DNA from: an uncultured bacterium
GTDB lineage: Bacteria; Omnitrophota; Omnitrophia; Omnitrophales; Abzuiibacteriaceae
NCBI GenBank assembly: GCA_964387845.1
Contig: CAYLXA010000001.1
Location: 256,001 to 320,000 of the forward strand
Length of the DNA stretch: 64,000 nucleotides
Reading direction: 5' to 3'
Below are positions 21,561-64,000 of this stretch, in pieces. The first letter of the stretch is position 1, and the number at the start of each line of letters is the position of its first letter. The translations under genes and the position numbers were made by a program. Under the pieces are notes generated by a model. That model ran no database searches. It was given only the letters and a program-made list of their open reading frames with translations, and was not told the DNA's origin.

Positions 21561-21857
21561 TTAGGGCGTTTTGGCCGGAGGTTCGGAATCTTCGGGAACT
21601 ACTTTGTAAACCACTTCGCCCGGCTTCACGAGTTTCAGCTCTTCGCGGATTACCTGCTCCAAATGCTCGGCATCGTTCCGGATCAGGTAATTTTCGCGCT
21701 CCAGATCGCTGATTTTTTTCTCAAGCGTCTCTACTTCAGCCGTCAACTTTTCTTCCGAGCGCTTAAGCTCTAAATATTTCGACAGCACCGGAAAAAACAG
21801 CAGAAACACGCCCGCCAAAATTGCGAAAATCCAAAAGAGACGGTCGATGCGCTTCAT
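21561..21857 (-). CDS. ftsB: Septum-formation initiator (FtsB/DivIC-like), 98 aa, downstream of eno
   Basis: N-terminal TM helix followed by a coiled coil (LELKRSEEKLTAEVETLEKKISDLERENYLIRNDAEHLEQVIREELKLV). The eno-ftsB arrangement is the conserved one. Confidence 0.65.
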   Translation of the reverse strand: MKRIDRLFWIFAILAGVFLLFFPVLSKYLELKRSEEKLTAEVETLEKKISDLERENYLIRNDAEHLEQVIREELKLVKPGEVVYKVVPEDSEPPAKTP

Positions 21858-48030: not shown

Positions 48031-51000
48031 TTATGCGGAGTAGAAAACCTGCATTTGCGCGCGGAACTTGCCGACCAAATATGCCGCGGCTGATAATACA
48101 TGGTCCACAAACGCTTGGTTCCAGATTATGACCTTGTCTGCGATTTTTTCAAGAAATGGAACGGCAACCGCGTCATCTGAAACACCGATAATGGCCATGG
48201 AAAGACCGAGATTTCTAAGTTCGGCGCGCGCCTTGTGGTAATCCTCAACGGGAACAATCCTATTTTTTGGATTTGCAATGGTTGCATTAATCTCGTCGAT
48301 GACGCGAAGCTCTGCGCGGTTTGTCACGATCACCATGTAAGAACCGTAAACATCCGAAAGATTCCGGCCAACCACAGCCAGACTTCCCTTTTCGCCGAAG
48401 AAAGCGTTACGCGTAAACACTTTCCCTTCCCGCATCTCTGATCGATTTTGAAGTGCTGTAACAATCTGATTGTCAAAACTGCGAGCGTTTGACACAATCC
48501 GGCGCATTTCGCTTCTCGCTACCGGTGCAATCTCAGTTTGCAAATCTCGGAATAACGGATTTTCTTTGACTTCAACTCTTCCTTTAGCAATGGTTTTTTC
48601 AGTCTTTGCAATGACGCGGAAATTAAAAACTGTTTCACCCGAAACTTCGGACTGCACCTTGGCCATAATTAGCGGGAGCCCCAAAACTTCGCTTTGCACC
48701 TTGTCTCCGATTTCAGTATTATTGAAAGCATCTGCTTGATTTAGAATCGACTTTTCAATCGCGCTTTGAAAATCGATTGGTTTGATTTTTTGAAGGCTTT
48801 CCGGCAGCAATTCCTTGTTAATTTCGCCTTCCAAATGAATACTGACATCATAACGGCTTCCAATTGTCTTTTGAGCGATTGTAAAATTCCGGTGTTCGCT
48901 TGTTAGCGATTTGACGCCCGCCTGCTCATAAAATTGAGCATCAATAACGGGAACCTCGCGGTCTGCGATCTCTTCTAAAATCCGGACCGCGCGATGAATA
49001 TATTTAGCGTGCCGGAAACTTCTTCGCTCATTTTCGCTCAGAGTCAAACTCCTGTTTTTCATCTGCAATTCCGAATACCAGCGCCGGAATAACTTCATAA
49101 TTTGAATCAGCGAAAGCGGCTGGTTAGCGCCGAGCGGATTGGATGAATTTTGTTCGTAAATTCTATTAATATCTGTCTCGCTTTGAGCTGTCCAGCTTGA
49201 TTTTTCCTGATTTAAAACCGCTTTAAGTACCGGAATATAAAAACCTGTGTCACGCTCAATCCACCAATTAAGCACATAAAGAGCGGCGAAGCGCGCAGAT
49301 TGGCGCAGCATATCCGGATTAAAGTTTTTAGGCGCTACTTCAATGAGCGGTTTCCATTCATCAACCGGAATAACCGGTTCAGCTAAGTATTGAAGCAGTG
49401 TTTCGAGGCCAACCTCATTTCCTTTTCCAAGCTCATCGGCTCTTGTCTTCCGGATTGTAAAATTAGGATGCGACAAATTTCTAAGAAGTTTTTGCACCGA
49501 ACGCAGTTCTGATTTTTGGCTGCCGGCATCAGGCCCAGGCATCGGCTCTGTCAATTTTTGGAAACGTTCGGCCAATTCGGTTTCTGAGATTTTAAACATT
49601 TCGTCAACAAACGCTTCGGAACCGCCAAGCTCCCCTCCGTCTTCTCCGAATAAACGGACTTCGACTAACTCATGAAACGCAACGGCAAATCTTTCGGCCG
49701 ATATCCTTTCTTCATCCGTTTTGAATTCAAACTGAAAAGCGAGACGCGTATCCTTAACCGCTTCAAGCGTCATCAAGGCCATCGGATTATCCGCTTCGAT
49801 CCATTCAGCACTCCCTTTGTTCAGATTTTTGATCTTAACAGAAACATTTTTTGCTAGGGCGGCTTGCGCCATTTCGACAATGAACATCGCTGGACTCGCA
49901 TGGACACCTTGCCGGTTCTTGACCGTAACATTGATCTCAATGCTGTTACTTTCCCCTTCCCGCAATTCCGACATGTTTCTATCAGTCGGCGTTACGGACT
50001 TTTTATATTCATTAATCTGATGATCGAGAAAAGCTTCGTAACTATCAATGGCCTGGCTTGTTTGCGCCAACCACTCTTCTTCTTCTTTCAATAATAGGCC
50101 ATGTTCTTCTTTCATTCCCTTCAAAGCAGACTTTGCTTTTCGAAGCTCTGGTAATATTCTGAGATAATAATCGTTCGCTTCCGCGGCTAGAGAATTGCCT
50201 CGATCCGAAACTGACAAAATAAAGCTGCTGAAACGATTCAACAAAACTTCCGTGCGGCTCAATAAAATCTTAATTCTGAGCTGCTGTTCATCCAAAGCGA
50301 TTCGCCTCGGTTTGATAAGAGAATAATAAAGGAGCGCTCCGACTCCTATGCCTATCGCGCCCGCTGAAATACCGATAACGGTATAATTTCGTAATTCAGA
50401 ACGATGTTTAGGCGGACGGGGAAAACTTTGAAAAGGCCCCCTGCGCGCAGCGCGGACAGCCTGAATTCTCGCCGTCACTTCTTCAATAGTATCTAAGTCA
50501 CCGGCTAATTCTGCGTTATGAAGCTCGACTTCCAATCTTGCCAAATCCGTCGAGTGATGCGATTGGTCTACAGCAAACGGAAGCTCGATCGGCTCCTCAT
50601 TTTCCAAATCATTGCGCAGTTCCGAACGGACACCGGATTTTTCGCGAGGCGGCTGTTCAGATTTCGGCGGAACCGGGATCCATCCTTCCCACCGGCGGTA
50701 AACATGCGTAGGCCGCGTCCCTACTTCATTGGAAATATTTTTACCGCGCACGCCATGAACCTGATGGGCTTCATCACGCCGTAAAACTTCGGCTCTTTGT
50801 GCACGAAAATAATCATCCGTAAAATGAGTGATTTCGCCGGTTTTTAAGCCCGCGCGGCGCCAGTCAATGTGCCCTTCGGGATGAACAACACGCATATCTT
50901 TCTTCAGTACCTGCAAAGCTCCGGAAAATGCGGCGTGATTAAACAAAATAACTGTTTTCCCGCGATACTGCTCGTTCATGCGTTTCCAAAAAGCGGCGGC

Positions 51001-54000
51001 GCGGATGATTAAATGGGCAAAACTTTCGCCATGCTCAGGTTTCGCCAAAACACTCCACTTTTGATAACTTCGCGCGGCCTTGAATTGTTCCCGGCCAAAC
51101 TGCGCCTTAATTTGCTCATTGGTGAGCCCTTCCCATTCGCCTTGAAAAATTTCTTTTGTATCGGGATCAATCATCACTTTCAGTTCAATTCCTAATTTTT
51201 CACGTACCAACCGGATAAATGGTTCTGCCGTATCCCGCACACGCCCAAGCGGATTAATGATCACCACAAACTGATCCGGATTTGCTGTGATTTGGTCTTT
51301 AAACTTTTCAAATAATTTTTCAGCGTCAGCTTGCGCTTGCACGCGCCCTTTTGGCGTCAACTGCGCGCCTTCGTTATCCATACCGCTTCCCTGAAACCTC
51401 TTTCTCCCTGTTCTTAGCCCTTCCGCAATGATGTGAGTTTCTCCGTGGCGGATAACGTAAAGATCCAGATCAAGCGCCGGTGGGAAATAAGGCTCTTTAT
51501 AAAAAAGCTGCCCGGTCGATTGATTGACCCAAAAACCCATTTGTTGCAATGTTTCGGAAACATTTTTTCGCAATTCCACCCTCGCCTTCATTAATAAATC
51601 CGGCTGTATTGCACTGGTCGGAACCACAAGTTTGCCGTTTTCCCAATAGACCAGCGCACTCAAAAACTGGAACATGACCGGATCATGTTTTCTCACAAAA
51701 TCAGGGTCAAGCCAGTAAAGAGACTGGGCTTCAAAGAAAAACTCTCGCGCAGAAACAATGCTGTATCGGCTCAAAAACTGCGTTTCAATTTCTTCTTGAG
51801 AATAATCAAGCACCTGCTTCTTTTTCCCAAATTGCCTTTCAAGTGCCTGCAGCCTAGTCTCATAAATCCGTTTTGCAATCTGATAAACTGCTGTTTTATC
51901 GTGTGGAATGTTCACAATAGAGAGTGGTAAATTTTTATTCGCAAAATGCTCTAAGCGCTCAAAGTTAATCGGCAGCGCATACTGATTATGCTCAACGAGC
52001 GTTTCCGCAAGTTCGTGAGTCAGGAGCCGTTCTAAATAAGTAAAGTCCTTATCCCTCACCTTCAAAAATTCATCGCTCACTGGCCCGTCATAGGAGATCG
52101 GATGATCGCCCGCATAAAGTGAAAGAAAGATCGATTTAACATTGGACAGCACAGGATGAAGGGAGTGATAGGTAACGCCTCCCAAATGATCTCCGTTGCG
52201 TCTTACGATAGAACGCGCAATAAATACTTGGGCATTGAGCATTTTAAAAAGCGGTGCAATTGCAATGCCGGCCCTATGGCTTTCAAGGAAATGATTGAGC
52301 TGGCCATATAACTTACGCGCTAATCTCCAGTCGGTTTCACTGTTTAATCCATGCAATACATCAGTCCGAATATGTGCAGAAGAGCCTTGTAGATAACCCA
52401 AAACAATTTGACGCAATTCCGCCCTTGCCCCCTTTGAAGAAACATTTTCATGATCCGCTGGGGCCGAGGGGCTTTCTTGTAGTTCTTGCAAAATTAATAT
52501 CACTTCGTCCGGAAGTCCTAATGCGCTTAAAGCATCCTTGGCGCTTTCGAGCTGATGAAAACTGAAATGATCCGCAAATCTTTCTGCGCGAGACTTATTT
52601 CCCAGCAACCCTGTCAAAAATGGGATAGCCAACTCACGAAAATGAATGCACCATGGCTCCGCTTGAAGAATCCGGTTGGTCAGATAAAGCAGTTTTTTAA
52701 GCTGTTTAAACGATAAATCGCTATCTTGAAGCGCGGCACGGATTGCGTCATGGCCTGCATCCAACAACATAGTCTTAGGGGCAGCACTTTCCGCTTCGGA
52801 ATTCCTGAGCTCGGAACGTATGGCTCTAGATTTAATAGCAACGCTGCCGAGATACACATTGCCGCTCTGGTGATAAAGAAGCGGGTTTTCGTGGCCATCC
52901 ATGCTGATAACGTCTCCATCCGCGATATCACGGCCGGCGATGAGCCAAAGATGCTTTTCCGGCTGGAACACCATGTCCGGAACGCCATAAACGGCCGAAA
53001 TGCCTTCTTTCTGCGCCAGCGTTTCCGCATGCACTGAAATGGTCTTCGCTAAAATATGAACCCCTTTTGGAATCCGGTTAATCATTTCGGGATTCACTCT
53101 GTCCAAGATCAAAATAACGCCGTCAACATCCGCTCGGGGATGAGAAACAAGTTCGCCCAAAAGCTTTTCCGCTGCTTCTATCGAATTAGCCGCCAAACCG
53201 CGAATCGCACCGCCGCTCACGCCATGGCCGCGCGCAATCGGCTGATTGTCAGTCGAGTCGGCAAATTCCGGATATTGATCCGTCACAAAATCATCATTGC
53301 TTTGGACAATCCATATCTTTCCGCGCTCAATCGTGAATTCAAACTGCTGGTTGTAACGGAAAATGTTCTTGAGCTTACGCGCGTACTCGAACACTTGTGC
53401 GTAAAGCTCCGGCTGCAATGCTTCAAATGTTTGTTCATCCGGCCGGATTCGCTCACCATTTCCGATTAAAATGTAATTTTGGCCGGCACGGCTCATCAAT
53501 TGATCGCCGATCGAGTGAAACCGAAATTTACCTTGGAGCACGTCATGGCCGTCCGGAAGTGTTCTCAAAACTGCGTGCCCCGCGCCTGAAATTTTCCCGT
53601 CATCAGTCGGCTTTAAATTTCCGAAAACGCCTTTCTGCAGAATAACGACCGTTCCCCACTCTTGCGAAATCTGATGCCGTGTACGATACGCGCGTGCCTC
53701 TTCGGAGTCCCACGATGCATAAACCGCTTCGACTGCCATCATGACCTGATCCATCATGTCGTTTGGAATTATTTTGCCGTGCCGCGCCACGATTGCTTTG
53801 CACTGTTCCACCACTGCCTTCATGCCGTCTGCCGACAAATCTTCCTTTTCTTTAACATTCAAAACCTGCTCAAATTCCGCCTCAGGAATACCGAGCACAT
53901 TGATCGAAAATGACCGGATAAATTCCGCGTAGGTGTCATACGCAAACCACGCATCGCCGCTTTTTTGGGCAAGCGCTTCGGCTTCCGCGTCGTTCATGCC

Positions 54001-57000
54001 CACATTCGACACAGTAGCCAAAAGGCCGGGCAGCATGAAAGCAGAACCGCTTCGCGCGTACAAAATAAGCTTGAGGTCGGGATACTCGGAGTAGCGTTTG
54101 AGCCGTTCGATTTCGGCTGCGATTTTTTGACGGAATTCGTCCGACCTGAAAATGTCGGGTTTCGTCACTAACTTGGCGCTCAAGATGACACCCGGCGGTA
54201 CGGGAATCCTCTCGTGCGTCATGCGGATCAAGTTCAGGCCCTTTTTGCTCCAAAGCGAGAGAAGTTCCGGCCGTTCATCCGTTTCATTTTCGCCAAACCG
54301 GTACAAATGTTGCTCGAAATCATCCGGCCTTTCCGCGCCGGCATCCTCACGGATGGCTTCGTCCTGGCCTTGCGAAAGCGCAGAAGCGAGAACAGCATCA
54401 AATTTCATGAGCGCGCGGTCAAATGCCGTCGCGCCGGAATTCCGGATCAGCTCATCAATCACCGCGGCTTCAAGTCTCTCTTTTCCTTCAGGCGGAAAGT
54501 CATAAATTTGATAAGTCTGATCATCCTCTGTTTTGGTTTTGATTTTAAAGAGGCTGGTATGTTCGCGCCATAATTTTGCCAGATCGTGATAACCAACTTC
54601 ATCCAAGCTGTATTGCATGGCCGCGCGCATGGTGTTATTTAGTTGCCGGGTAATTTTGTGGACTTCGGCCTCAAGCGTGTGGACCAAATCGTAGAGCTGC
54701 GACGCCTTAATGCTGCCCGAATCAAGCTCAACCATCAATTGATCAAAATCGACACCACCCAGCCCTGAAGCCTGAATAAACCGGCCGAGCGCAATGAGAT
54801 TGGGCAATTCGCGCCGCAAATCGTCTACAGAATTTATTTTTTCAATCTTTTCCTGGACGTGAGCAATCTTTTCCGAAGCTAAAATCGATAATTTCTCGCT
54901 CATTTCAACCAACGTGCGTAAATCATATAGATAATCACCTTCTTCATGCATATCGTTCCACTCCTGGTCTATATCATCCGCATCCTCATCGGCCGAATCT
55001 TCGCCGTCCCGCCCAATGCTCTTCTCTGCCTGTCCCAATACTTTTTTCTGATTTTCCTCTCCGGAAAGCAAAAACTCTTTAAGATCATTTTGCACTTTCA
55101 CGATGGCGGAGAAAATGGCCGCATGATCATCAGAATCGATCAACATAAGCAGCCGATCGTAATCCTCCCGCATAAACCGGGTAATGGCCGTCATTTTCTT
55201 TTTCAAGTACCCACCGTCACGCAGATCTTCAGTTTCTCCTTTTAAGAAAGGAACGATCGTCGCGACGCGAGTTCCGAAATGATCCGCAAAAGCCAAATAA
55301 AGTTGAGTCATTAATTGAACGCGTTCATAGTCAATCTCGGACACATCTTCATCCCGGTTCGCTTCTTCATAAATCGCGACTACTTCACGCTCCGGAATGT
55401 CCAGGATTTCATCCAGAAAAGCCTCCGGATCGCTTTTGCTGATTTTCCCTTTGGCCGCAAGCGCTTTGACAAAACGGTTCAAGAGTTTTGAATAAGTTTG
55501 AAGAGTCGCTGGATTGAAATCTTTTGTCATATCATCCCGCAGCAGAGTCCAGTTGCTTTCCTTTAAAATAGACTCATCAAGCGTCAACCAATAAGCAAGA
55601 ACTCTTCTCGTATTCTCAAAGTCACTTCTATTCAAGTTTCGATGAATACCGTCTCTAAAATGGCTGAACCATCCGCGGCCAAACTCGCCGGGATAAGAGG
55701 CATTATTATCAAGCCGTCTTGAATAGCTGATAATACGGTCCTGCGAATTATCCGTAGAGACGCCGCCCTTGCGTTCGGCTTCGATGACTTTCATTAAATA
55801 AAAATAGGCCGCTCGGGCGTTTGGTTGATGGAGCAAATACAAGGACATCTGCGGATACTCTATGCGCTTTCTGCCTTCGCTTGGAATATCACGCACAAGG
55901 CCTTGGGCTGCCACAAAAGCAGCGGCAAGCGGATCCGCCGGTGAAACGCTCAGCAAGATAGAAATCAGTTCCCTGAAAAATTCGTGGCCTATGGTTCGGA
56001 GGTGCAGCAGAAGGTGAATCAGTTTACCCAAGTCGTCAGGACTTGCTTGGCGGAAAGTTGCTTCTAAATCATGGTGGATATCAGCTTTGATGTAATGCTC
56101 ATTAAAGTAAGCGGCTGCCAACTCAAGAAAAATCCGGTTCTCTTCCGGCGAATTTGTTTTAGAGAGGTAAATCGGAATCAAATGCTCTTTAAAGAAAGCA
56201 TCCGTCATTCTATAGCGGTCGGGCGACATCGCGCTCGACACGTACCACAAGTAGCTCTGTTTCTTATCCAGCGGTAAATCTGCTTTTAAAATAAACTCGC
56301 GAATCAAATTCTGCAGATGCTCTTTAGAATTTTTTTTAAGTAGGTCGATAATCGCCTCTTTCCTCGCCCCGACGGCTTGATTTTGCTCAAACGACAGGTG
56401 CTTGCCGCCTCTTCCAAAACTTAGTTTCATGAGTGTTTGGTAATCGCGCAGCGCTTTTTCGAATTCTTTATAAGACATTGGGTTTGTACGACCGTCCGAC
56501 CTGAGCTCGGAACGTTTTTGGGCAGTAAGTGTTTTTAAATTCGGAAAAAGTGTGCGGAACGGTTCGCCGAAAAAGAGGCGGCGTCGGACAGCCTCTTTGC
56601 GGCGATGAATAAATGCGGCTTGAGTCGGAAAAATAAGATGCCTCGGCAGAGGAGCGTATTTTAAATAAACAGGAGCTGATGTATTGATACCAACATTTAA
56701 TTCCGGGTCTTGCAAATTCGGCAGCGGAAGCGTGAGCACCGCATCCCGCAGAGGATTTTTACTGCGGTCACCGATTGTGCGAATCAGCATGCTGGCTTGA
56801 ACCTCGCTTACATCCCACGGTGAACGGAATCCCAGCCGAACCCAGTCAGATTCATTACGCGATAAAACTTCCGCGACCAGTTTTTCTATTTTTTCATTCG
56901 AAATTTTTCGGCCCGTTTCAACACCGTTCTGATCCAGTTCGGGAACATCGGTCAGCATCCGGCTTAGATATTCCGTCATGGATTGTTTTCCGGTGCGGCG

Positions 57001-60000
57001 TTTTGTATCGTCCGGCCAAAATCTGGCGCCATACTTCAGTGAGAATATTTTTACGCCCAGATCTGTGGATCTGTAACCAAACTTCCAATCATGAACGTCT
57101 TGATCCAGCATGACCGATAAGGCCCATAGCATCAAATTTCGATACGTGAAACCCGGATAAGACTGCGAGAATTTTCGTGTAGACGGCGGTATATCGGCCA
57201 AACGTTCTTCGGGCCATGCCGATACAACACTAATGAACCGCTTGACATAATCGGCCAGCAGCTCGTTGTCCGAGGGTTTCTTGATTTCTTTCCCGTCAAA
57301 TTCCTCAATATGAAGACCGGTCGGACGCAGATGTATGACTTGCGTCAAGCCCAATGTCCAGTAAGCGTAAAATAAATCCTCTAAACCACCCGCAAGCAGA
57401 TGATCCAGACGGCCTGCAAATTTTTCAAATTCGTCCAGGTCTTTGAAATAGGGATCGATTAACGTTGCCAAAAATTGGTTGAGGTTGCCGAATTTCTTGT
57501 CAAGGCCCCGGTTTTCCCATTCCCGGCGCAATTCGACGCCGAGCTCGCGTAATTCCCTATTCGAAAATCCTTCGGGCAATACCTTGCTCCAATAAATGCG
57601 CCTGTCCTCTGAGCCGCTTCTGGGCCAAAACCGATTGGAGTCGTGCGGGCTCAATAGAAACGTCAGAGCTTCAAGGATATCGCCTTCCGTCAGACTGTCA
57701 TAAATCTTATTCGGAGAGCCCGCTTGATCCATCAAATCGCGAATCACATCCATAACTTGATCGACTTTTGAACGTTGGGTGACCGCGGCAGTTTGCCTAA
57801 GTTCCGAACGGTTTTTCAGAATTTGCCGCCGTTCTTCGAGCGTAAAAAATTGTTTTTCGTAAGCTCTTTTTGCGGCTTCCCGGATTTTTCTATTAAACCG
57901 GTCTAAATCAGTTATTTCCTTCTTTAAAAAATCAAGCCACTGTTTTGGTTCAATGGTCATTTCCCCGAAAAATTCGTCGCTCAAAAGCATCAACAGCTGC
58001 ACAAATGCGACTTTGTACAAAGGATCTTCCTGATCCAAGGCAGCCCGCATCGCATCTGATACCGGAAGTACCGGATTCAGATAAGGGAACAGGATTTGAG
58101 CCGGATAGGACGACCGGATTAATTCATTCAATTTAGCTTCTACTTCAAAGTAAGCATGGGCCAACAACCCCTGCTGATCGCCTTCATACCCGCCCAGCGC
58201 ATGAGCCAGCAAACTTCCGGGACGCAGGATAGCTTTCATCACATTAATCCAATAGAGCGATGTTGAGTAATCGTTTTCTCCCTTATAAAATTCGTTTGCA
58301 AACACATAGGCATCGGAATGGCTAAGTTCCTCCTCTAAAACTCCGCTCCGGTATAATTGTGCGACATACCCATAATCGCCCAAACTATAAAAATGCATTT
58401 GAATCCAATCTCGTAAGTAAGCGACGGGTGATTGATCAAAATTGGGAAATTGATACTGGCCCGTTTCATATAACTTTTTCAAATTTTGGTAATAATCAAA
58501 ATTTTCTATCGAAGGAACGTCGGTGCCTTCAATAATGACAATATGCCTGTCTTTCGCAAATGCACTTAGGTAACTGTCGCTCTTTCCGTCTCTCGATTTG
58601 AGGCGAACGGTGTAAACCGGAACAAACCGGCCTGCCGCAGAGCGCTGAGATTCCCTTTTGATAATTTTACCGACCAAGAGTCCGCTGCCGTTCACTATGT
58701 CCACGATCAGGCCACGTGGAATTAAAATATCGTCCGCGATTTTTGTTCCTATTTTTCCGATATCATAAATAGAAATCAAATCTTTGTGGCCAAATGAAAA
58801 AGCGGCATCAAAATCCGGTGAAAGAGGCCTGAGAACCTGGTTGAATGTTTCAACGGCCTCAAGACGGTTTAAGTCATTTAGACTGGCTTTTTCGACTAGG
58901 TACTTTAGCTTCGGCCAATAGCTCACCCAAAACCATTCCACAACATCAAAGCTGGGGCTATCCGGATTTAGGAGCCTAAACTCTCTGATTAAGTTGAGAA
59001 TTTGATTCGCCTGGCTGGTGTTGAGCGTGATCTTTCCGCGCAAAGCTTTGATAATGCCTTGCGCATTTAAATTTTGAGTTTCCAAAAATTCTTTCAGAAC
59101 ATCTACGGTAAAAAAGCGTTTAATATTTTTTACGCTTAATTTCGAAATGATGAGAGCATGCAGCGTTTGAACCGGATCCGTATTTACTGCTTGTGCCGTC
59201 TGATTGCGCAATTCAGAGCGGAGTAGCTCAGACTGCGGGGCAGCGGTTTGACCTTGCAACGGGATTTCCCAGAAATTGCGGGCGTTGCGGGCAGAATCGA
59301 AGAATGCTCTGGCTTTCGCACGGTTGCCTTTGGTTAACTCGAATAATCCAAAAATAATTGCGTAAGCTCTTTCCGTAAAGCTACGCGACTTTTTTAGCAC
59401 AAAGTCACGGGCCAGCCACCGGTAACGGAATGCGTCAAAATGATACTGAAAACCGGCTTCCGGATCGTGAATCTTTTTAATTGTATTGCGCGAGGCTCCC
59501 TGAGAGTAGTGCTGATCTAAATAATCGCGGCCGTAGTTGGTAATCCCTGCATAGATCTTCTTAAAGCCCGAACGCCGCGCGACATCTTGAAGAATCTGAA
59601 TCGCTTCCGGCATCAGTTCATCGAAATATTTTGCACCGTCATTGTTAAACTCGAAACTGTTGACCGTTAGTACCGGATCTCCATTGTCTTCCGATGCAAT
59701 CATCCACATCTGTGCCCGATGCTGATAGGCATCGCCTGAACCCTTGTGATCGATGTCCGCCAGGATAATTCCGTCGTCACTCAGGAGAGAGGGCAAAATC
59801 CAGGAGACAAAATGCTGCAGAGAAATACAATTTCCGATGGCTTCACTTGAAGTGAGAAAATCTATCGCGCCTTTCAGGGTCTTTTTGTCGTGAATTCTTA
59901 TTCGAATTCCCTTTTCTTTATTTTCGTAAACCCTGCCCTTCTCAAATTCAGAAACATTGATGCCGATTGCCTGCATTTTTTTCTCAATGGCTGAAACATG

Positions 60001-63000
60001 GCCTGTTTTGCGAAGTCTTTCTGACAAATAATCACGCAATCTTTTGTAATACAAAATTCCGGGCGCAATATTGAGCCGCGTGCTGATCAAAAAAGTTCCT
60101 GGCGCGATAATTCCCATCAAAATAAAAAACAAGGCAGCATTTGAAATGAGAGGATAAATGGTAAAAACGCCGAACCCGACCAGAAACGCGAAAGCGGTCG
60201 GCGCCACCCAAGCATAAATGGGCCTTGGCGGCTTTCTAAGGCCTTTCAAAATGCGTGGATTCATCGTGACAATGTCGAGAGCATCTGCAATGCTGATCCC
60301 GAGTGCGCGCCGCACTTTGGCAATTTCGGAAATTTTCATGCGGCTCAGGCGCGTGGCTTTCATAAATTTCTGAACCGCCATGAGTTTGTCAAAAGCGTCT
60401 TTTTTAAGACTGTCCCGCACCGCTTTGTCTTCGGAAAGCCTGCGCATAGCTTCTTGATTTGAGGCTGACCAGACTACGGCAATAACTTCTTCCGTTTTTT
60501 TCCGCTGGTCAGGCGAAAGTTTATCCAAAAACTTAAGCACATTGACGAGATCGCCGTCTTTAACGGACACGTTGTACAGAATTTCTTCAAAAAAGTACCG
60601 CAAATTCCGGTTTGGACTTGGAAAATATTCGAGCAACTTTTCAAGTTTCGCGATTGCGCGCGGAGGATAGCTCATTTTCTGCGCAACGGGATTTTCATTA
60701 ATTTCAGCGAGAATGGTTTCGATAAATTTTGGATATGCGCGGAGCTCGGATCGCTGCTCATCGGTTTTTTTTGCGATTGCCCTCCTTTCAGACTTATGCT
60801 GAAACCACCACATTCCTCCAAAAAGAAGCAGAAGCGGCGGGATCAAGGAAGCATTGTCCGTAAGCCAGGCAACGGGCCCGGTCACAACAAGAACAAGCGA
60901 GGCTGTAATTGCCTTAAGAAAATATTGTTTCCGGAACTTAAACCACCACGTTTTATACTGAGTCGGAAAAATCTTAACGCGGTTCGATGGTTGAATTAAA
61001 TCCGTTACATAACCAATCACTTCACCTTTTGGGAAAGCATACTCCAAAGGCTCGACCGGATACCCATAAACGTCTAAATATTGTTTTTGGGAAGGATCGG
61101 CATATTCGATCGATACAAGCTCGGGCTGTTTGCCGGATTTCTTAACATAATCGACAAGCCTCTTAGGCCCTTGATTGAGCGGATAAGCAAAATAAAGAAC
61201 TGATTTAAATCCGCATGCCCGGGCATAGTTCTCGATGATTTTTTGAATTCCCTTCGCCTTTGCATCAAAAATTCGCCCCTCCACACCGTCCACAAATAAA
61301 ATCGGCTGTTCTTTTCCGTCTTGATCCTTATAAATCGCGGCGGCGATTCTGGCCCGTACCCGGCGGCCTTCGCGCGTACGGAAATCAATCGCTGAAATAC
61401 TTTTGTTGTGCAAATAATTAAACGGGCCCAGCGCACCTTTTGTTCTCCGGTTTAATTTGTCAAGCCACGTGTTGCCGCGAAGCGACGCCGAAGAAAAGAA
61501 ATCCTTTTGATTGGTTAAATCAAACCACGGATCGCGCCGCCAAATCCGGGCTTCTACAATTGAGTCCGGTAAATTTCCCCAATCGTCAATCTTGGAGATA
61601 CTTTTCTGAAGGTATTGATTGGCCTTCGCGGCATTGGGGTTTACATATTGGCCCAGCTCTTGCAGCAACTTTTTTCCTTCCTCGACAGGCAATTCACCTC
61701 TTTTATTCCTGGCCAATTCTTCTTTGTGCGCATTGAAAAATTGAGTGACCGACTTCTTACCCTCCTTTAAATTGGGCGTGTACTGTCCGGGCTTAAACTG
61801 GCGGTCTTCGGTTGAACCCAAAAAATCCCTGAGTATTTTCTGGATAAACTCGGGGATGGTTTGATTTTCCGCGTCTTCGAATTCCCCTGCCGGTACTTTT
61901 TCAATATTATCCCCGCGAATTTGATAATAGACTTTGTAATCCGGATTATCCCAATTTTCGTTGATGCCGACCGATTTGAGACGCTCCATGGTTTGAATCG
62001 CTGCCTCGGTCTGGTCAAACCATTGCCGGTAACTTCGCCGCTTAAGCATGGAGGCCAGATCCAACGCGGAAATTGTTTTCCACGAAAAAATGAACATTCG
62101 TTTCGCAAATACCGCCAAAATGTAAACCAAGGCTGTGAAACCTGACGCCACAAACAAGCTTTCAATCCATCCTGCGGGATCAGAATTGTTGATCATTTCC
62201 CTAATATTTAAGCTTGCTAAATTTCCATCCATCCAAAAAGAAATAGCGGAATAGAAAATTGTGAGCGCTGCGCGTTGAACCGAAGCATAGAAATATCCAA
62301 TAACGCCAGTGAAGGAAACCGCGAGAAGATGCAGCCACGGGTTCTGAATGAGCGCCGTACGGGCGTGCGCAATCCGTGCGCGTTCTAATTTTTCTTCGTT
62401 AATTTTGTTCAAGTCAATCTTTAAACTTTTAAACTTTTTCCACAAAAATTTCAGCTCCGGGAAACCGTCTTTCTCCATCCGCTCGTCGATTTCGGCAATG
62501 GTGAGATCTGAATTCTCACGCAGTTCACTGGCTGCCTTTGGATTTTTGCTTTTTCCGTTTCCGGAAAAAGCGTTGCGCGTCAGAACACCGATCGTTTTAA
62601 ACACCAGCGCGGTGTTATAAAGTGCCGACCGGTCCCGGATATCGTTTAACTCCAGCTCTATGTCATGCGTGTCCATGCCAAACTTTCCGGTTCCGATACC
62701 CCGCTTTAGAGCGCTTGAGCTGAGAAAACCCGGCTTGGTGTGATGTAAAACACTTTCGATATAATTTTGATCAACTTCCAAAGGTAAGCGCGGCCTTGGC
62801 CCAAACCATTGCATGTCACCGCGGACAATCGACAAGAGCTGCGGAAGCTCATCAAGCCCCGTTCTGCGCAAAAACCATTCGTAAGGCGTAATGCTTTCAT
62901 CTGAAATGTTGAAATCAAGTTTCATGGTTTTAATTTTTCGTATCACAATCGTCTTGCCCTGAAAACCGATTCGCTCTTGAATAAAAAACATGGGGCCGCT

Positions 63001-63996
63001 TGTGATAATTTTCCGGATAAAGGCAAGCAAATAAACCAGCGGAAGAGTTAAAACCCACAAAACGAGCGCTGTGATTCTCCCTGCCGCCTCGGACAGATCA
63101 GGTTTCTTTGCCGCGGGAAGCGATAAAGCATTGGTTTCCTTCAAGCGCAATTCCGAGCGCGCTTTATCGATGTCGTTCGATTGAGAAGCCGAAGTCGGTA
63201 TTTCTCCGGTTGGGTGATTGCTGCTTACCGCATTTGCTTTTCCTTTTGAATGCAAATAAAAGGTGCCGACGGCGGATGTTAAATGTCCCAATCCGGCCAG
63301 AAGCACAACCTCGTTTGAATCTTTTCTGGATCCAAGATACGCGGTTTCTGCCATAAAAGATCCTCTGTCTTTTGCTTTGTCGTTGGGATGTGTCAAATAA
63401 TCAGGGGCGAATAACTGGTGCGACTCGATAGATTTCAACCATTTGGTAAAAAGCAGAATGAGAGAAACCACAAGAAACCACGGTGCAAAAAATGCAGCTA
63501 TTAAACTATCCCGAAGCGAATCCCCATGATCAAATATTTCACTGCCAACCTGCAATTTGTAAAGCAGGCGAAAATTTCGCTCGTGAAAAAATGGGATGCC
63601 TTCTCTCGCTAAGAAATAAGATAACTCCCGTACTTTTTTCTTGTTTAGCAGCATAAATTCAGAACCATGCACAATGCCAATCACATGAAAAGTACGCCCG
63701 CCGATTTTGACCATCTTACCGGAAAAACCAAAGCGTTCCGCAATCGGCGAATCTTGAAATTGCGCCATGGTTTCAGAAGCCGCCTTTCGCCAAATTGGAG
63801 TAGCGAAGTCTGAAAATACTCGGCGGTGATAACCGATATTTTTGCCTAAAAGACCGGCTTTTTTAAATTTCTGAAACAATTCGATGGGTTTTGATGATTC
63901 AATCATCCAAGTTCCGATAGTCCTTTCTGAAATTTTTAATTCACCCGCTCGATCCCAAAATTGTTTCTCAGACGGGTAACGTAAAACATTGATCAA
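48031..63996 (-). CDS. Giant polytopic membrane multidomain protein, at least 5,321 aa (15,966-nt uninterrupted frame). Domains identified from N- to C-terminus: possible TraB-like region, PGT (polyprenyl-phosphate hexose-1-phosphate transferase) domain, several TM clusters, PPDK/PEP-synthase-like ATP-grasp plus PEP-utilizer phospho-His domain, histidine phosphatase (PGAM-like), HPr-like domain, and an unassigned C-terminal ~540 aa
   Basis: Single ORF ending at a stop at 48031. The frame is still open at 63997..64000 (the track start at 63996 is a TTG), so the true 5' end may lie beyond the window. PGT domain: FIQERIGFQGK...TGLDELPQLLSIVRGDMQWFGPRP. PPDK_N region: GLNLIRMTHERIPVPPGV, ARSGSAFMLPGLLATVSNVG, RAYRTRHQISQEWGTVVILQKGVFGN...SGAGHAVLRTLPDGHDVLQGKF. 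Phospho-His domain: AKTISVHAETLAQKEGISAVYG. PGAM-like: LYVIRHGETH. HPr-like: KNRQGVHASPAMF. Confidence 0.85.
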   Translation of the reverse strand: MINVLRYPSEKQFWDRAGELKISERTIGTWMIESSKPIELFQKFKKAGLLGKNIGYHRRVFSDFATPIWRKAASETMAQFQDSPIAERFGFSGKMVKIGGRTFHVIGIVHGSEFMLLNKKKVRELSYFLAREGIPFFHERNFRLLYKLQVGSEIFDHGDSLRDSLIAAFFAPWFLVVSLILLFTKWLKSIESHQLFAPDYLTHPNDKAKDRGSFMAETAYLGSRKDSNEVVLLAGLGHLTSAVGTFYLHSKGKANAVSSNHPTGEIPTSASQSNDIDKARSELRLKETNALSLPAAKKPDLSEAAGRITALVLWVLTLPLVYLLAFIRKIITSGPMFFIQERIGFQGKTIVIRKIKTMKLDFNISDESITPYEWFLRRTGLDELPQLLSIVRGDMQWFGPRPRLPLEVDQNYIESVLHHTKPGFLSSSALKRGIGTGKFGMDTHDIELELNDIRDRSALYNTALVFKTIGVLTRNAFSGNGKSKNPKAASELRENSDLTIAEIDERMEKDGFPELKFLWKKFKSLKIDLNKINEEKLERARIAHARTALIQNPWLHLLAVSFTGVIGYFYASVQRAALTIFYSAISFWMDGNLASLNIREMINNSDPAGWIESLFVASGFTALVYILAVFAKRMFIFSWKTISALDLASMLKRRSYRQWFDQTEAAIQTMERLKSVGINENWDNPDYKVYYQIRGDNIEKVPAGEFEDAENQTIPEFIQKILRDFLGSTEDRQFKPGQYTPNLKEGKKSVTQFFNAHKEELARNKRGELPVEEGKKLLQELGQYVNPNAAKANQYLQKSISKIDDWGNLPDSIVEARIWRRDPWFDLTNQKDFFSSASLRGNTWLDKLNRRTKGALGPFNYLHNKSISAIDFRTREGRRVRARIAAAIYKDQDGKEQPILFVDGVEGRIFDAKAKGIQKIIENYARACGFKSVLYFAYPLNQGPKRLVDYVKKSGKQPELVSIEYADPSQKQYLDVYGYPVEPLEYAFPKGEVIGYVTDLIQPSNRVKIFPTQYKTWWFKFRKQYFLKAITASLVLVVTGPVAWLTDNASLIPPLLLLFGGMWWFQHKSERRAIAKKTDEQRSELRAYPKFIETILAEINENPVAQKMSYPPRAIAKLEKLLEYFPSPNRNLRYFFEEILYNVSVKDGDLVNVLKFLDKLSPDQRKKTEEVIAVVWSASNQEAMRRLSEDKAVRDSLKKDAFDKLMAVQKFMKATRLSRMKISEIAKVRRALGISIADALDIVTMNPRILKGLRKPPRPIYAWVAPTAFAFLVGFGVFTIYPLISNAALFFILMGIIAPGTFLISTRLNIAPGILYYKRLRDYLSERLRKTGHVSAIEKKMQAIGINVSEFEKGRVYENKEKGIRIRIHDKKTLKGAIDFLTSSEAIGNCISLQHFVSWILPSLLSDDGIILADIDHKGSGDAYQHRAQMWMIASEDNGDPVLTVNSFEFNNDGAKYFDELMPEAIQILQDVARRSGFKKIYAGITNYGRDYLDQHYSQGASRNTIKKIHDPEAGFQYHFDAFRYRWLARDFVLKKSRSFTERAYAIIFGLFELTKGNRAKARAFFDSARNARNFWEIPLQGQTAAPQSELLRSELRNQTAQAVNTDPVQTLHALIISKLSVKNIKRFFTVDVLKEFLETQNLNAQGIIKALRGKITLNTSQANQILNLIREFRLLNPDSPSFDVVEWFWVSYWPKLKYLVEKASLNDLNRLEAVETFNQVLRPLSPDFDAAFSFGHKDLISIYDIGKIGTKIADDILIPRGLIVDIVNGSGLLVGKIIKRESQRSAAGRFVPVYTVRLKSRDGKSDSYLSAFAKDRHIVIIEGTDVPSIENFDYYQNLKKLYETGQYQFPNFDQSPVAYLRDWIQMHFYSLGDYGYVAQLYRSGVLEEELSHSDAYVFANEFYKGENDYSTSLYWINVMKAILRPGSLLAHALGGYEGDQQGLLAHAYFEVEAKLNELIRSSYPAQILFPYLNPVLPVSDAMRAALDQEDPLYKVAFVQLLMLLSDEFFGEMTIEPKQWLDFLKKEITDLDRFNRKIREAAKRAYEKQFFTLEERRQILKNRSELRQTAAVTQRSKVDQVMDVIRDLMDQAGSPNKIYDSLTEGDILEALTFLLSPHDSNRFWPRSGSEDRRIYWSKVLPEGFSNRELRELGVELRREWENRGLDKKFGNLNQFLATLIDPYFKDLDEFEKFAGRLDHLLAGGLEDLFYAYWTLGLTQVIHLRPTGLHIEEFDGKEIKKPSDNELLADYVKRFISVVSAWPEERLADIPPSTRKFSQSYPGFTYRNLMLWALSVMLDQDVHDWKFGYRSTDLGVKIFSLKYGARFWPDDTKRRTGKQSMTEYLSRMLTDVPELDQNGVETGRKISNEKIEKLVAEVLSRNESDWVRLGFRSPWDVSEVQASMLIRTIGDRSKNPLRDAVLTLPLPNLQDPELNVGINTSAPVYLKYAPLPRHLIFPTQAAFIHRRKEAVRRRLFFGEPFRTLFPNLKTLTAQKRSELRSDGRTNPMSYKEFEKALRDYQTLMKLSFGRGGKHLSFEQNQAVGARKEAIIDLLKKNSKEHLQNLIREFILKADLPLDKKQSYLWYVSSAMSPDRYRMTDAFFKEHLIPIYLSKTNSPEENRIFLELAAAYFNEHYIKADIHHDLEATFRQASPDDLGKLIHLLLHLRTIGHEFFRELISILLSVSPADPLAAAFVAAQGLVRDIPSEGRKRIEYPQMSLYLLHQPNARAAYFYLMKVIEAERKGGVSTDNSQDRIISYSRRLDNNASYPGEFGRGWFSHFRDGIHRNLNRSDFENTRRVLAYWLTLDESILKESNWTLLRDDMTKDFNPATLQTYSKLLNRFVKALAAKGKISKSDPEAFLDEILDIPEREVVAIYEEANRDEDVSEIDYERVQLMTQLYLAFADHFGTRVATIVPFLKGETEDLRDGGYLKKKMTAITRFMREDYDRLLMLIDSDDHAAIFSAIVKVQNDLKEFLLSGEENQKKVLGQAEKSIGRDGEDSADEDADDIDQEWNDMHEEGDYLYDLRTLVEMSEKLSILASEKIAHVQEKIEKINSVDDLRRELPNLIALGRFIQASGLGGVDFDQLMVELDSGSIKASQLYDLVHTLEAEVHKITRQLNNTMRAAMQYSLDEVGYHDLAKLWREHTSLFKIKTKTEDDQTYQIYDFPPEGKERLEAAVIDELIRNSGATAFDRALMKFDAVLASALSQGQDEAIREDAGAERPDDFEQHLYRFGENETDERPELLSLWSKKGLNLIRMTHERIPVPPGVILSAKLVTKPDIFRSDEFRQKIAAEIERLKRYSEYPDLKLILYARSGSAFMLPGLLATVSNVGMNDAEAEALAQKSGDAWFAYDTYAEFIRSFSINVLGIPEAEFEQVLNVKEKEDLSADGMKAVVEQCKAIVARHGKIIPNDMMDQVMMAVEAVYASWDSEEARAYRTRHQISQEWGTVVILQKGVFGNLKPTDDGKISGAGHAVLRTLPDGHDVLQGKFRFHSIGDQLMSRAGQNYILIGNGERIRPDEQTFEALQPELYAQVFEYARKLKNIFRYNQQFEFTIERGKIWIVQSNDDFVTDQYPEFADSTDNQPIARGHGVSGGAIRGLAANSIEAAEKLLGELVSHPRADVDGVILILDRVNPEMINRIPKGVHILAKTISVHAETLAQKEGISAVYGVPDMVFQPEKHLWLIAGRDIADGDVISMDGHENPLLYHQSGNVYLGSVAIKSRAIRSELRNSEAESAAPKTMLLDAGHDAIRAALQDSDLSFKQLKKLLYLTNRILQAEPWCIHFRELAIPFLTGLLGNKSRAERFADHFSFHQLESAKDALSALGLPDEVILILQELQESPSAPADHENVSSKGARAELRQIVLGYLQGSSAHIRTDVLHGLNSETDWRLARKLYGQLNHFLESHRAGIAIAPLFKMLNAQVFIARSIVRRNGDHLGGVTYHSLHPVLSNVKSIFLSLYAGDHPISYDGPVSDEFLKVRDKDFTYLERLLTHELAETLVEHNQYALPINFERLEHFANKNLPLSIVNIPHDKTAVYQIAKRIYETRLQALERQFGKKKQVLDYSQEEIETQFLSRYSIVSAREFFFEAQSLYWLDPDFVRKHDPVMFQFLSALVYWENGKLVVPTSAIQPDLLMKARVELRKNVSETLQQMGFWVNQSTGQLFYKEPYFPPALDLDLYVIRHGETHIIAEGLRTGRKRFQGSGMDNEGAQLTPKGRVQAQADAEKLFEKFKDQITANPDQFVVIINPLGRVRDTAEPFIRLVREKLGIELKVMIDPDTKEIFQGEWEGLTNEQIKAQFGREQFKAARSYQKWSVLAKPEHGESFAHLIIRAAAFWKRMNEQYRGKTVILFNHAAFSGALQVLKKDMRVVHPEGHIDWRRAGLKTGEITHFTDDYFRAQRAEVLRRDEAHQVHGVRGKNISNEVGTRPTHVYRRWEGWIPVPPKSEQPPREKSGVRSELRNDLENEEPIELPFAVDQSHHSTDLARLEVELHNAELAGDLDTIEEVTARIQAVRAARRGPFQSFPRPPKHRSELRNYTVIGISAGAIGIGVGALLYYSLIKPRRIALDEQQLRIKILLSRTEVLLNRFSSFILSVSDRGNSLAAEANDYYLRILPELRKAKSALKGMKEEHGLLLKEEEEWLAQTSQAIDSYEAFLDHQINEYKKSVTPTDRNMSELREGESNSIEINVTVKNRQGVHASPAMFIVEMAQAALAKNVSVKIKNLNKGSAEWIEADNPMALMTLEAVKDTRLAFQFEFKTDEERISAERFAVAFHELVEVRLFGEDGGELGGSEAFVDEMFKISETELAERFQKLTEPMPGPDAGSQKSELRSVQKLLRNLSHPNFTIRKTRADELGKGNEVGLETLLQYLAEPVIPVDEWKPLIEVAPKNFNPDMLRQSARFAALYVLNWWIERDTGFYIPVLKAVLNQEKSSWTAQSETDINRIYEQNSSNPLGANQPLSLIQIMKLFRRWYSELQMKNRSLTLSENERRSFRHAKYIHRAVRILEEIADREVPVIDAQFYEQAGVKSLTSEHRNFTIAQKTIGSRYDVSIHLEGEINKELLPESLQKIKPIDFQSAIEKSILNQADAFNNTEIGDKVQSEVLGLPLIMAKVQSEVSGETVFNFRVIAKTEKTIAKGRVEVKENPLFRDLQTEIAPVARSEMRRIVSNARSFDNQIVTALQNRSEMREGKVFTRNAFFGEKGSLAVVGRNLSDVYGSYMVIVTNRAELRVIDEINATIANPKNRIVPVEDYHKARAELRNLGLSMAIIGVSDDAVAVPFLEKIADKVIIWNQAFVDHVLSAAAYLVGKFRAQMQVFYSA

Positions 63997-64000
63997 TAGC

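Follow-up and report, generated by a model that had tools for sequence, protein, structure and literature searches.

What is encoded at the far end of this 64,000-nucleotide stretch of DNA from an uncultured Omnitrophota bacterium (the whole of which is called the window below), where a minus-strand open reading frame (ORF) of more than five thousand codons runs out over the last base? A preliminary description of the region 62557-63996 took it for the N-terminal module of a very large protein, in which a possible TraB/GumN-like part was followed by a phosphoglycosyl transferase (PGT) domain. The analysis reported here suggests another arrangement, in which the region is internal and comprises two self-contained units, a hydrolase-like unit, designated unit X, and a PglC-type PGT unit, within a giant gene that is polyprotein-like, belongs to the Omnitrophota type and has its units delimited by a recurrent RSELR pentapeptide. 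The probability of this reading is put at roughly 0.6. In place of the single module of the preliminary description there are thus two units of protein size, with RSELR motifs, of which the description made no use, between them.

The first part of the question concerns the extent of the gene. The minus-strand frame is free of stop codons from base 63999 down to the stop at 48031-48033, and the codon just upstream of the TTG at 63996, which is the first start-type codon, is CTA (63999-63997); the frame is therefore open at the window edge with a leucine codon before the TTG, as had been stated. An exhaustive phmmer search, using ORF residues 1-300 as the query and 1.84 billion cluster representatives as the target, retrieved a protein of 5,975 residues, P0001, which is 100% identical to the query at its residues 654-953. 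The last 5,322 residues of P0001 are those of the window ORF with zero mismatches, and 653 more lie upstream. The flagged region (62518-63999) corresponds to residues 654-1148 of P0001 and is thus internal, rather than an N-terminal module, because these further residues, which make up three units and the first 111 residues of unit X, precede it. The gene is predicted to reach at least 653 codons (~1,959 nt) past base 64000 and to have its start there, beyond the window as anticipated, the start position being taken from the gene call of P0001 and not from upstream DNA. P0001 is encoded on a 409,037-bp NCBI contig, together with the PurH and MnmE of the window, and the genomic setting is chromosomal, among the housekeeping genes PurH, FolC, MnmE and RNR. 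A 57-mer from near the window end gave no exact DNA match in GTDB genomes or JGI metagenomes.

A gene start inside the window, at one of the in-frame ATGs at residues 32, 78 and 96 (bases 63906, 63768 and 63714), or an ORF produced by assembly or frameshift fusion of separate genes, would be another account of the region, and weak purine-rich stretches are found upstream of the three ATGs. Both possibilities are nevertheless extremely improbable, as the 95 codons upstream of residue 96 contain no stop, the frame stays open to the window edge, P0001 continues beyond it, and the conservation of the unit X family begins at about residue 8, before all three ATGs. An in-frame stop upstream combined with an ATG start near residue 31 or 95, which the preliminary description had considered as the sign of a gene complete at this point, is excluded by the continuation of P0001. 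A one-off assembly artefact does not explain the long ORF, because L001, an independent Logan assembly, agrees with the window at 21,563 of 21,563 bases, a stretch that takes in the 3' 9 kb of the ORF. The two assemblies thus agree base for base, and the junctions between the units carry a conserved translated motif, without stop, ribosome-binding-site or start signals.

This motif, [R/K]-[S/A/V]-E-[L/M]-R, occurs in 18 copies along the window ORF, at spacings of 24-1,232 residues; the 33 remaining ORFs of the window, which together amount to 13,825 residues, contain 0 copies. Exact SELR is found 14 times versus ~0.13 expected. P0001 as a whole contains 25 sites of the looser form [S/A/V/T]-E-[L/M/V/I]-[R/H], ~22 of which are preceded by arginine or lysine. 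The motif is encoded in many ways, with serine as TCN or AGT, leucine as TTG, CTG, CTC, CTT or TTA, and arginine as CGN or AGG, and its conservation therefore lies at the level of the peptide, on which selection acts, and not of the DNA. Two other explanations of the repeat were accordingly rejected: a DNA-level repeat or recoding element is ruled out by the variable synonymous positions, and a hidden internal start (TTG, ATG or GTG) at the L/M/V position by the use of CTC, CTT and TTA for leucine. The segments between the motifs are not paralogous within a protein, according to an all-against-all comparison. The motif positions coincide with domain boundaries, and the copies at residues 281-285 and 490-494 exactly bracket the PGT unit. 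A literature full-text search for RSELR gave nothing relevant to a description of the motif, and this fencing of units appears to be undescribed so far.

The unit between these two copies is almost certainly a PGT, judging from its profile match and its alignment with known enzymes. The match to the Bac_transf profile (PF02397) covers profile positions 7-177 of 179, and a 208-residue query (window 62515-63138) aligned, among solved structures, with residues 17-192 of the 205 of Campylobacter PglC (E=2.9e-12; PDB 8e37 and 8g1n). The alignment takes in the N-terminal re-entrant helix with its kinking proline, the F-x-Q-x-R-x-G and K-x-K-T-M motifs, the LDELPQL dyad and GPRP, and the unit is of nearly the same length (209 versus 205 residues). 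A strong hydrophobic segment is found at ORF residues 305-334, and the peptide ITALVLWVLTLPLVYLLAFIRKII, quoted earlier for the re-entrant helix, is present at residues 308-331; the earlier call of a clear PGT domain containing this helix is well borne out. Among the NCBIfam models, only the catalytic halves of the large exopolysaccharide, WcaJ and WbaP transferases match, below their full-length cut-offs, and no NCBIfam equivalog is reached by the unit. The differences from the PglC-type enzymes, a group which includes the catalytic domain of WbaP and WcaJ, lie in the basic-Asp N-terminal motif (KRxxD), here reduced to G-R-I-T-A, and in the setting, since the unit is embedded in a 5,975-residue ORF between RSELR motifs and is not a separate gene. 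The unit is, in short, a PF02397 member of the ordinary kind that is found in an unusual place, and it would be expected to be active and to prime a lipid-linked glycan.

The relatives of the PGT unit occur in both kinds of setting. Soil metagenomes and actinobacterial metagenome-assembled genomes (MAGs) contain free-standing relatives, which are encoded by ORFs of 196-264 residues and show 33-47% identity. The closest relatives in GTDB (36-45% identity) lie in five giant ORFs, from four MAGs of Omnitrophota and one of Planctomycetia. Four of the ORFs run for at least 3,700-6,800 residues and continue past the ends of the DNA analyzed, and the fifth, L003, is a 790-residue piece on a 3.8-kb contig. 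In the locus search with a single protein, relatives were found only through the PGT pattern GDMQWFGP, in both collections, and no unit X relatives were obtained in this way.

Upstream of the PGT, unit X in its entirety spans residues 543-938 of P0001 (396 residues) and has RSELR on both sides. Its first 111 residues fall outside the window and contain two predicted transmembrane (TM) helices, with a strongly basic stretch before them. The helical subdomain that follows gave an RGS2-like profile match (residues 35-100 of the family profile, E~0.05, 66 residues), which was judged to be probably due to chance. The remainder, which contains the peptide GRTFHVIGIVHGSEF (ORF residues 101-115), also present as quoted before, and a GxxH motif in GRTFHVIGIVHG, resembles the core of the TIKI/TraB/PrgY/GumN superfamily (PF01963), which includes the Wnt protease Tiki1, the Enterococcus proteins PrgY and TraB, the Vibrio endopeptidase RRSP, ChaN and the erythromycin esterases. 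Ten full-length cores of the family share the invariant positions S84, H105, G108-x-x-H111-G112, E140, D157, P173, R212 and G236-x-x-H239, and Asp157 is followed by His158 in eight of them. The active site of RRSP consists of H3902, E3930, R4001 and H4030, at spacings of 28, 71 and 29 residues (PMC6254334); the signature H111, E140, R212 and H239 of unit X has the same order and spacings of 29, 72 and 27. E3900 of RRSP, the first glutamate of its 2His/2Glu set, two residues before the first histidine, has no counterpart in unit X, where position 109 is hydrophobic.

An AlphaFold model of unit X, computed from 13 sequences, is confident, with a predicted local distance difference test (pLDDT) of 85.4 and a predicted template modelling score (pTM) of 0.83, and displays the TIKI alpha/beta fold, the core of which is a parallel beta sheet. 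The signature positions in the model lie after strands 102-109, 137-139 and 230-236 and at the start of helix 212-223, a disposition compatible with the TIKI site. Several searches gave negative or marginal results: PF01963 gave no match to the window sequence at E<=10 in any of three sub-ranges, and in the family members scanned singly it matched one of 13 (E=0.075); unit X has no NCBIfam match, a search of PDB sequences with the family profile found nothing related, and Foldseek with the unit X model gave no significant match in the PDB. The earlier TraB/GumN-like guess thus stands with regard to the fold and the catalytic signature, with its GxxH, and fails with regard to the PF01963 profile match that had been proposed as its check. 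Neither is the order of parts as first described, with some 160 N-terminal residues followed by a TM helix, for the core spans residues ~84-255 and the hydrophobic stretch at residues 163-188 is inserted within it.

A TIKI/TraB-like fold for unit X is probable on this evidence. The likeness may, as an unlikely alternative, be coincidental, in which case unit X would be a membrane protein of Rossmann-like alpha/beta type, unrelated to TIKI, that uses its conserved His, Glu and Arg residues for chemistry of another kind, for example metal binding or a phosphatase-like reaction; the profile and Foldseek results above are what such a protein would give, and the order and spacing of the four signature residues speak for the TIKI site. 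If the likeness is real, unit X is predicted from its sequence and model to be a new and very divergent branch of the superfamily, previously unrecognized. It differs from the other branches not only in escaping detection by PF01963, but also in having a hydrophobic residue in place of the threonine of the TraB GTxH, an additional invariant H105 and an Asp157(-His158) motif, a hydrophobic, Pro-kinked insert of ~25 residues inside the domain, an N-terminal helical subdomain with two TM helices, and a position that is mostly internal to very long proteins. The insert, which lies between the part of the core with the signature Glu and the part with the Arg, is probably a re-entrant hairpin, like that of the PGT, because a single membrane crossing would split one domain across the membrane, and the hairpin probably dips into the membrane. 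The hydrolase core itself is likely to be on the cytoplasmic side, since the upstream TM helices are preceded by the basic stretch (the positive-inside rule).

The distribution of unit X connects it with giant genes and with the junction motif. The phmmer search retrieved 12 relatives besides P0001, nine of which are internal to proteins of 911-6,806 residues. P0002, P0006 and P0010 were rejected as relatives, as they consist of tandem repeats (of 91, 59 and ~105 residues, in 20-43 copies) whose many weak local matches add up to a high score. A word-indexed protein search with ORF residues 1-305 and with the family profile gave no match although P0001, P0003, P0004, P0005 and P0007 are in the collection, and this null result is not evidence of absence. 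In P0003 the motif takes the form RSEVR or RSEMR, is present in 21 copies and bounds a unit X of 395 residues; in P0004, RSELR is present in 9 copies and bounds one of 386 residues; and in P0005, 12 copies of the same or a variant motif occur, which bound one of 421 residues. The genes of P0003 (NCBI GCA_023247055.1) and P0004 (on a Logan contig) are complete and have ordinary genes around them, and at both loci the motif is limited to the giant gene. When the five unit X giants were split at their motifs, 68 units resulted, and in an all-against-all comparison unit X was the sole unit common to all five, their cargo being otherwise unrelated. P0004 is without any Pfam-recognizable domain, and unit X is therefore its only hydrolase-like part. 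P0003 (also L013; JAHFHF010000038.1, 581-21001; 6,806 residues) bears faint precomputed Pfam matches to Peptidase_M50 (site-2 protease), HATPase_c and methyltransferases, and its M50 unit would be an alternative candidate for a processing protease.

Since unit X adjoins the PGT here, it might instead serve as a partner of that enzyme in glycan biosynthesis, as an esterase, hydrolase or accessory protein, in the manner of GumN beside the priming transferase GumD in the xanthan gum cluster. Members of the TraB/GumN family are found in polysaccharide loci. Esterases also belong to the superfamily, erythromycin esterase being one of them (PMC6254334). Such a role is nonetheless quite unlikely: the adjacency is not conserved, as no PGT match was obtained for the units that follow X in P0003, P0004 and P0007, and unit X is the constant element of giants that share no other cargo.

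Other giants carry other junction peptides. The ORF of the Omnitrophota MAG contig JBAROK010000101.1 (L004, from nucleotide 6421) contains KPEAPDMA(REK) eight times, and that of JAKLFA010000005.1 (L005), also from an Omnitrophota MAG, contains (T)N[S/A]AV[L] eleven times; in both, the codons are variable and the peptide flanks the PGT. Two further giants with unit X relatives are P0007 and P0015. In P0007 (6,713 residues, on a JGI contig of 194,974 bp), S[A/S]S[S/P][L/A] recurs ~12 times, with one copy on either side of unit X, and P0015 (3,002 residues) possibly has PAAAP-type junctions, one of them between beta-eliminating lyase and guanylate kinase domains. RSELR is found in neither of these two proteins, and their junction peptides are statistically weaker than RSELR. 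The comparison suggests that lineage-specific junction motifs are a general feature of such giants.

The question that follows is whether the units are released from one another. In the proposed scheme, cleavage at RSELR, or just beside it, would release individual proteins from the giant one. The units would have originated as separate proteins and probably function as such, as is suggested by the stand-alone size of the PGT, by a lipoprotein-type signal, AFKILKLIQLFSLIGLASVGC, that begins at P0001 residue 291 (outside the window) directly after a SELR motif, and by a TM anchor that follows an RSELR motif before ORF residue 4539. N-terminal signals of this kind are sensible only with a newly made N-terminus, which renders processing at RSELR plausible; the odds of such processing are regarded as even. 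A single uncleaved, giant multi-enzyme membrane protein is a less probable but substantial alternative, in which RSELR would be a linker (for docking, phosphorylation of its serine or a folding pause) and unit X and the PGT would be tethered domains of one assembly line. Multi-enzyme giant ORFs of Omnitrophota have been described without demonstrated cleavage (Nielsen & Lui 2026, 10.64898/2026.06.07.730766), a study from 2023 calls the cleavage points unknown (10.1101/2023.11.21.568195), and no Pfam peptidase family matched the window ORF at E<=1, nor the three upstream units of P0001. In such a protein, however, the targeting signals located right after motifs (P0001 residue 291; ORF residue 4539) would be buried and non-functional, the exact size and ends that the PGT unit shares with free-standing PGTs would have no evident reason, and the mixture of signal peptide, TM segments and cytoplasmic enzymes would be hard to fit to one topology.

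If the polyprotein-like giant is indeed processed, the cut at RSELR might be performed by unit X, facing the cytoplasm. Unit X is the best candidate because its superfamily contains sequence-specific endopeptidases (Tiki1, RRSP), because it is constant in the giants with RSE[LVM]R and because it probably faces the cytoplasm, the side on which the junctions would appear. Viral polyproteins and MARTX toxins offer a parallel, as there too one product holds many unrelated units, a short peptide recurs at the junctions, and a candidate peptidase is encoded within the product itself; they differ in that the present gene is chromosomal and stands amid housekeeping genes, that its cargo consists of metabolic and envelope enzymes and not of toxins, and that cleavage is here a prediction. 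The processing enzyme of MARTX toxins is their cysteine protease domain and not a TIKI unit. The TIKI-family endopeptidase RRSP is nevertheless carried by MARTX toxins (PMC6254334).

Several points weigh against the reading as a whole or against its parts. The presence of unit X in all five giants is partly circular, because unit X itself was the query that led to the relatives. No unit X is present in the up to 6,800 residues analyzed of L002, L004, L005 and L007, giants found via the PGT; as these show other junction peptides and no unit X in the analyzed parts, unit X cannot be the processing enzyme of all giants. The PGT diverges in its C-terminal third, where PGFLSSSAL stands instead of the PGITGLAQV of PglC-type enzymes, and its activity and substrate are therefore uncertain. 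The support for cleavage is sequence-derived, rather than experimental or proteomic. It is the circularity, together with the giants that have other junctions and no unit X in the parts analyzed, that keeps the protease role of unit X a tentative and somewhat doubtful proposal. The complete scheme is slightly more doubtful still, namely that RSE[L/V/M]R would be the cleavage site of a chromosomal bacterial polyprotein, and that unit X, present once per giant gene, would act as its sequence-specific endopeptidase at the cytoplasmic membrane face, freeing ~20 unrelated enzymes, lipoproteins and membrane proteins, the PglC-type PGT among them.

The giant proteins of Omnitrophota include a class of 'multi-enzyme metabolic clusters' (West-Roberts et al. 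2023, 10.1101/2023.11.21.568195; Nielsen & Lui 2026, 10.64898/2026.06.07.730766). For these, post-translational cleavage has been proposed, with cleavage points that were unknown, so that splitting the proteins for analysis was not possible (10.1101/2023.11.21.568195). The gene described here resembles them in being a single ORF of thousands of residues, with many unrelated enzyme families, a signal peptide and TM helices, and in having its nearest PGT relatives in giant ORFs as well, in Omnitrophota and Planctomycetia MAGs. It differs in size, 5,975 residues being small for the class, and in having its units bounded by RSE[LM]R, a junction motif reported in neither of the two studies (10.1101/2023.11.21.568195; 10.64898/2026.06.07.730766).

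The other units of P0001 illustrate the variety of the cargo. Its N-terminus, MKLNSYLLKSVALTLVLTF, resembles a signal peptide, and this leader is followed, upstream of unit X, by an S-adenosylmethionine-dependent methyltransferase unit (Methyltransf_25, E=8e-9) and by a lipoprotein-like unit. Downstream of the Bac_transf match lie PPDK_N, PEP-utilizers, His_Phos_1 and PTS-HPr domains, and the protein also has several TM segments. The PPDK_N/PEP-utilizers, His_Phos_1 and PTS HPr units represent a phosphotransfer theme within the giant ORF. A second long ORF, at the opposite end of the window (1980-8192, minus strand, 2,070 residues), is without an RSELR-type motif. The coordinates of the features are collected in Table 1.

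Table 1. Location of unit X, the PGT unit, the junction motifs and the other units of the giant ORF. Residues are numbered from the first codon of the ORF within the window (base 63999).
Feature	ORF residues	Window coordinates	Strand	Remarks
Giant ORF, window part		48031..63999	minus	5,322 codons and stop; residues 654-5975 of P0001
Unit X, window part	1-285	63145..63999	minus	P0001 654-938
All-helical subdomain of unit X	8-80	63760..63978	minus	Conserved in the family
Putative TIKI/TraB-like alpha/beta hydrolase core	84-255	63235..63750	minus	
Signature codons of the core	H111; E140; R212; H239	63669-63667; 63582-63580; 63366-63364; 63285-63283	minus	
Hydrophobic insert RDSLIAAFFAPWFLVVSLILLFTKWL in the core	163-188	63436..63513	minus	Invariant Pro173; predicted hairpin topology
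Junction motif R281-S-E-L-R285	281-285	63145..63159	minus	Between unit X and PGT unit
PGT unit, 209 residues	286-494	62518..63144	minus	Predicted small monotopic phosphoglycosyl transferase, complete and PglC-sized
Bac_transf (PF02397) match	309-473	62581..63075	minus	E=1.6e-28; 99.9 bits versus a cut-off of 27
Re-entrant membrane helix ITALVLWVLTLPLVYLLAFIRK	308-329	63013..63078	minus	Helix-breaking Pro320; aligns with the LTSP helix of PglC; predicted topology
Catalytic dyad Asp383-Glu384 in GLDELPQL	383-384	62848..62853	minus	Aligned to LDELPQL of PglC
PRP motif Pro401-Arg402-Pro403 in GDMQWFGPRPR	401-403	62791..62799	minus	Conserved in monotopic PGTs
Junction motif A490-S-E-L-R494	490-494	62518..62532	minus	Ala-at--1 variant; closes the PGT unit
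PPDK_N and PEP-utilizers unit		~52800-56500	minus	Pfam; between RSELR motifs
His_Phos_1 (histidine-phosphatase) unit		~50600-51600	minus	Pfam; between RSELR motifs
TM helix YTVIGISAGAIGIGVGALLYY	4539-4562	~50320-50385	minus	Starts two residues after RSELR; signal-anchor-like
PTS HPr unit		~49500-49970	minus	Pfam; between RSELR motifs
Motif copies, first base of the S/A/V codon (18)		63156, 62529, 60750, 59217, 57807, 57537, 56511, 52815, 52422, 51579, 50625, 50400, 49971, 49512, 48513, 48441, 48315, 48225	minus	
DIDKARSELRLKET				Proposed Förster resonance energy transfer (FRET) peptide for the predicted RSELR cleavage

The giant genes of Omnitrophota and their kin are a recognized puzzle, and the present gene is a small and tractable example, which is built of ordinary protein-sized units. 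A new family would be added to the TIKI superfamily, and the corrected annotation of the region, as internal and composed of two units, stands even without cleavage. If cleavage does occur, the arrangement would be a bacterial counterpart of the polyprotein expression of viruses, and the motif would provide the first cleavage map for giants of the Omnitrophota type, with other lineages using KPEAPDMA, TNSAVL or SAS[SP]L. Whether, where and by what these giants are processed thereby becomes a question that can be tested directly.

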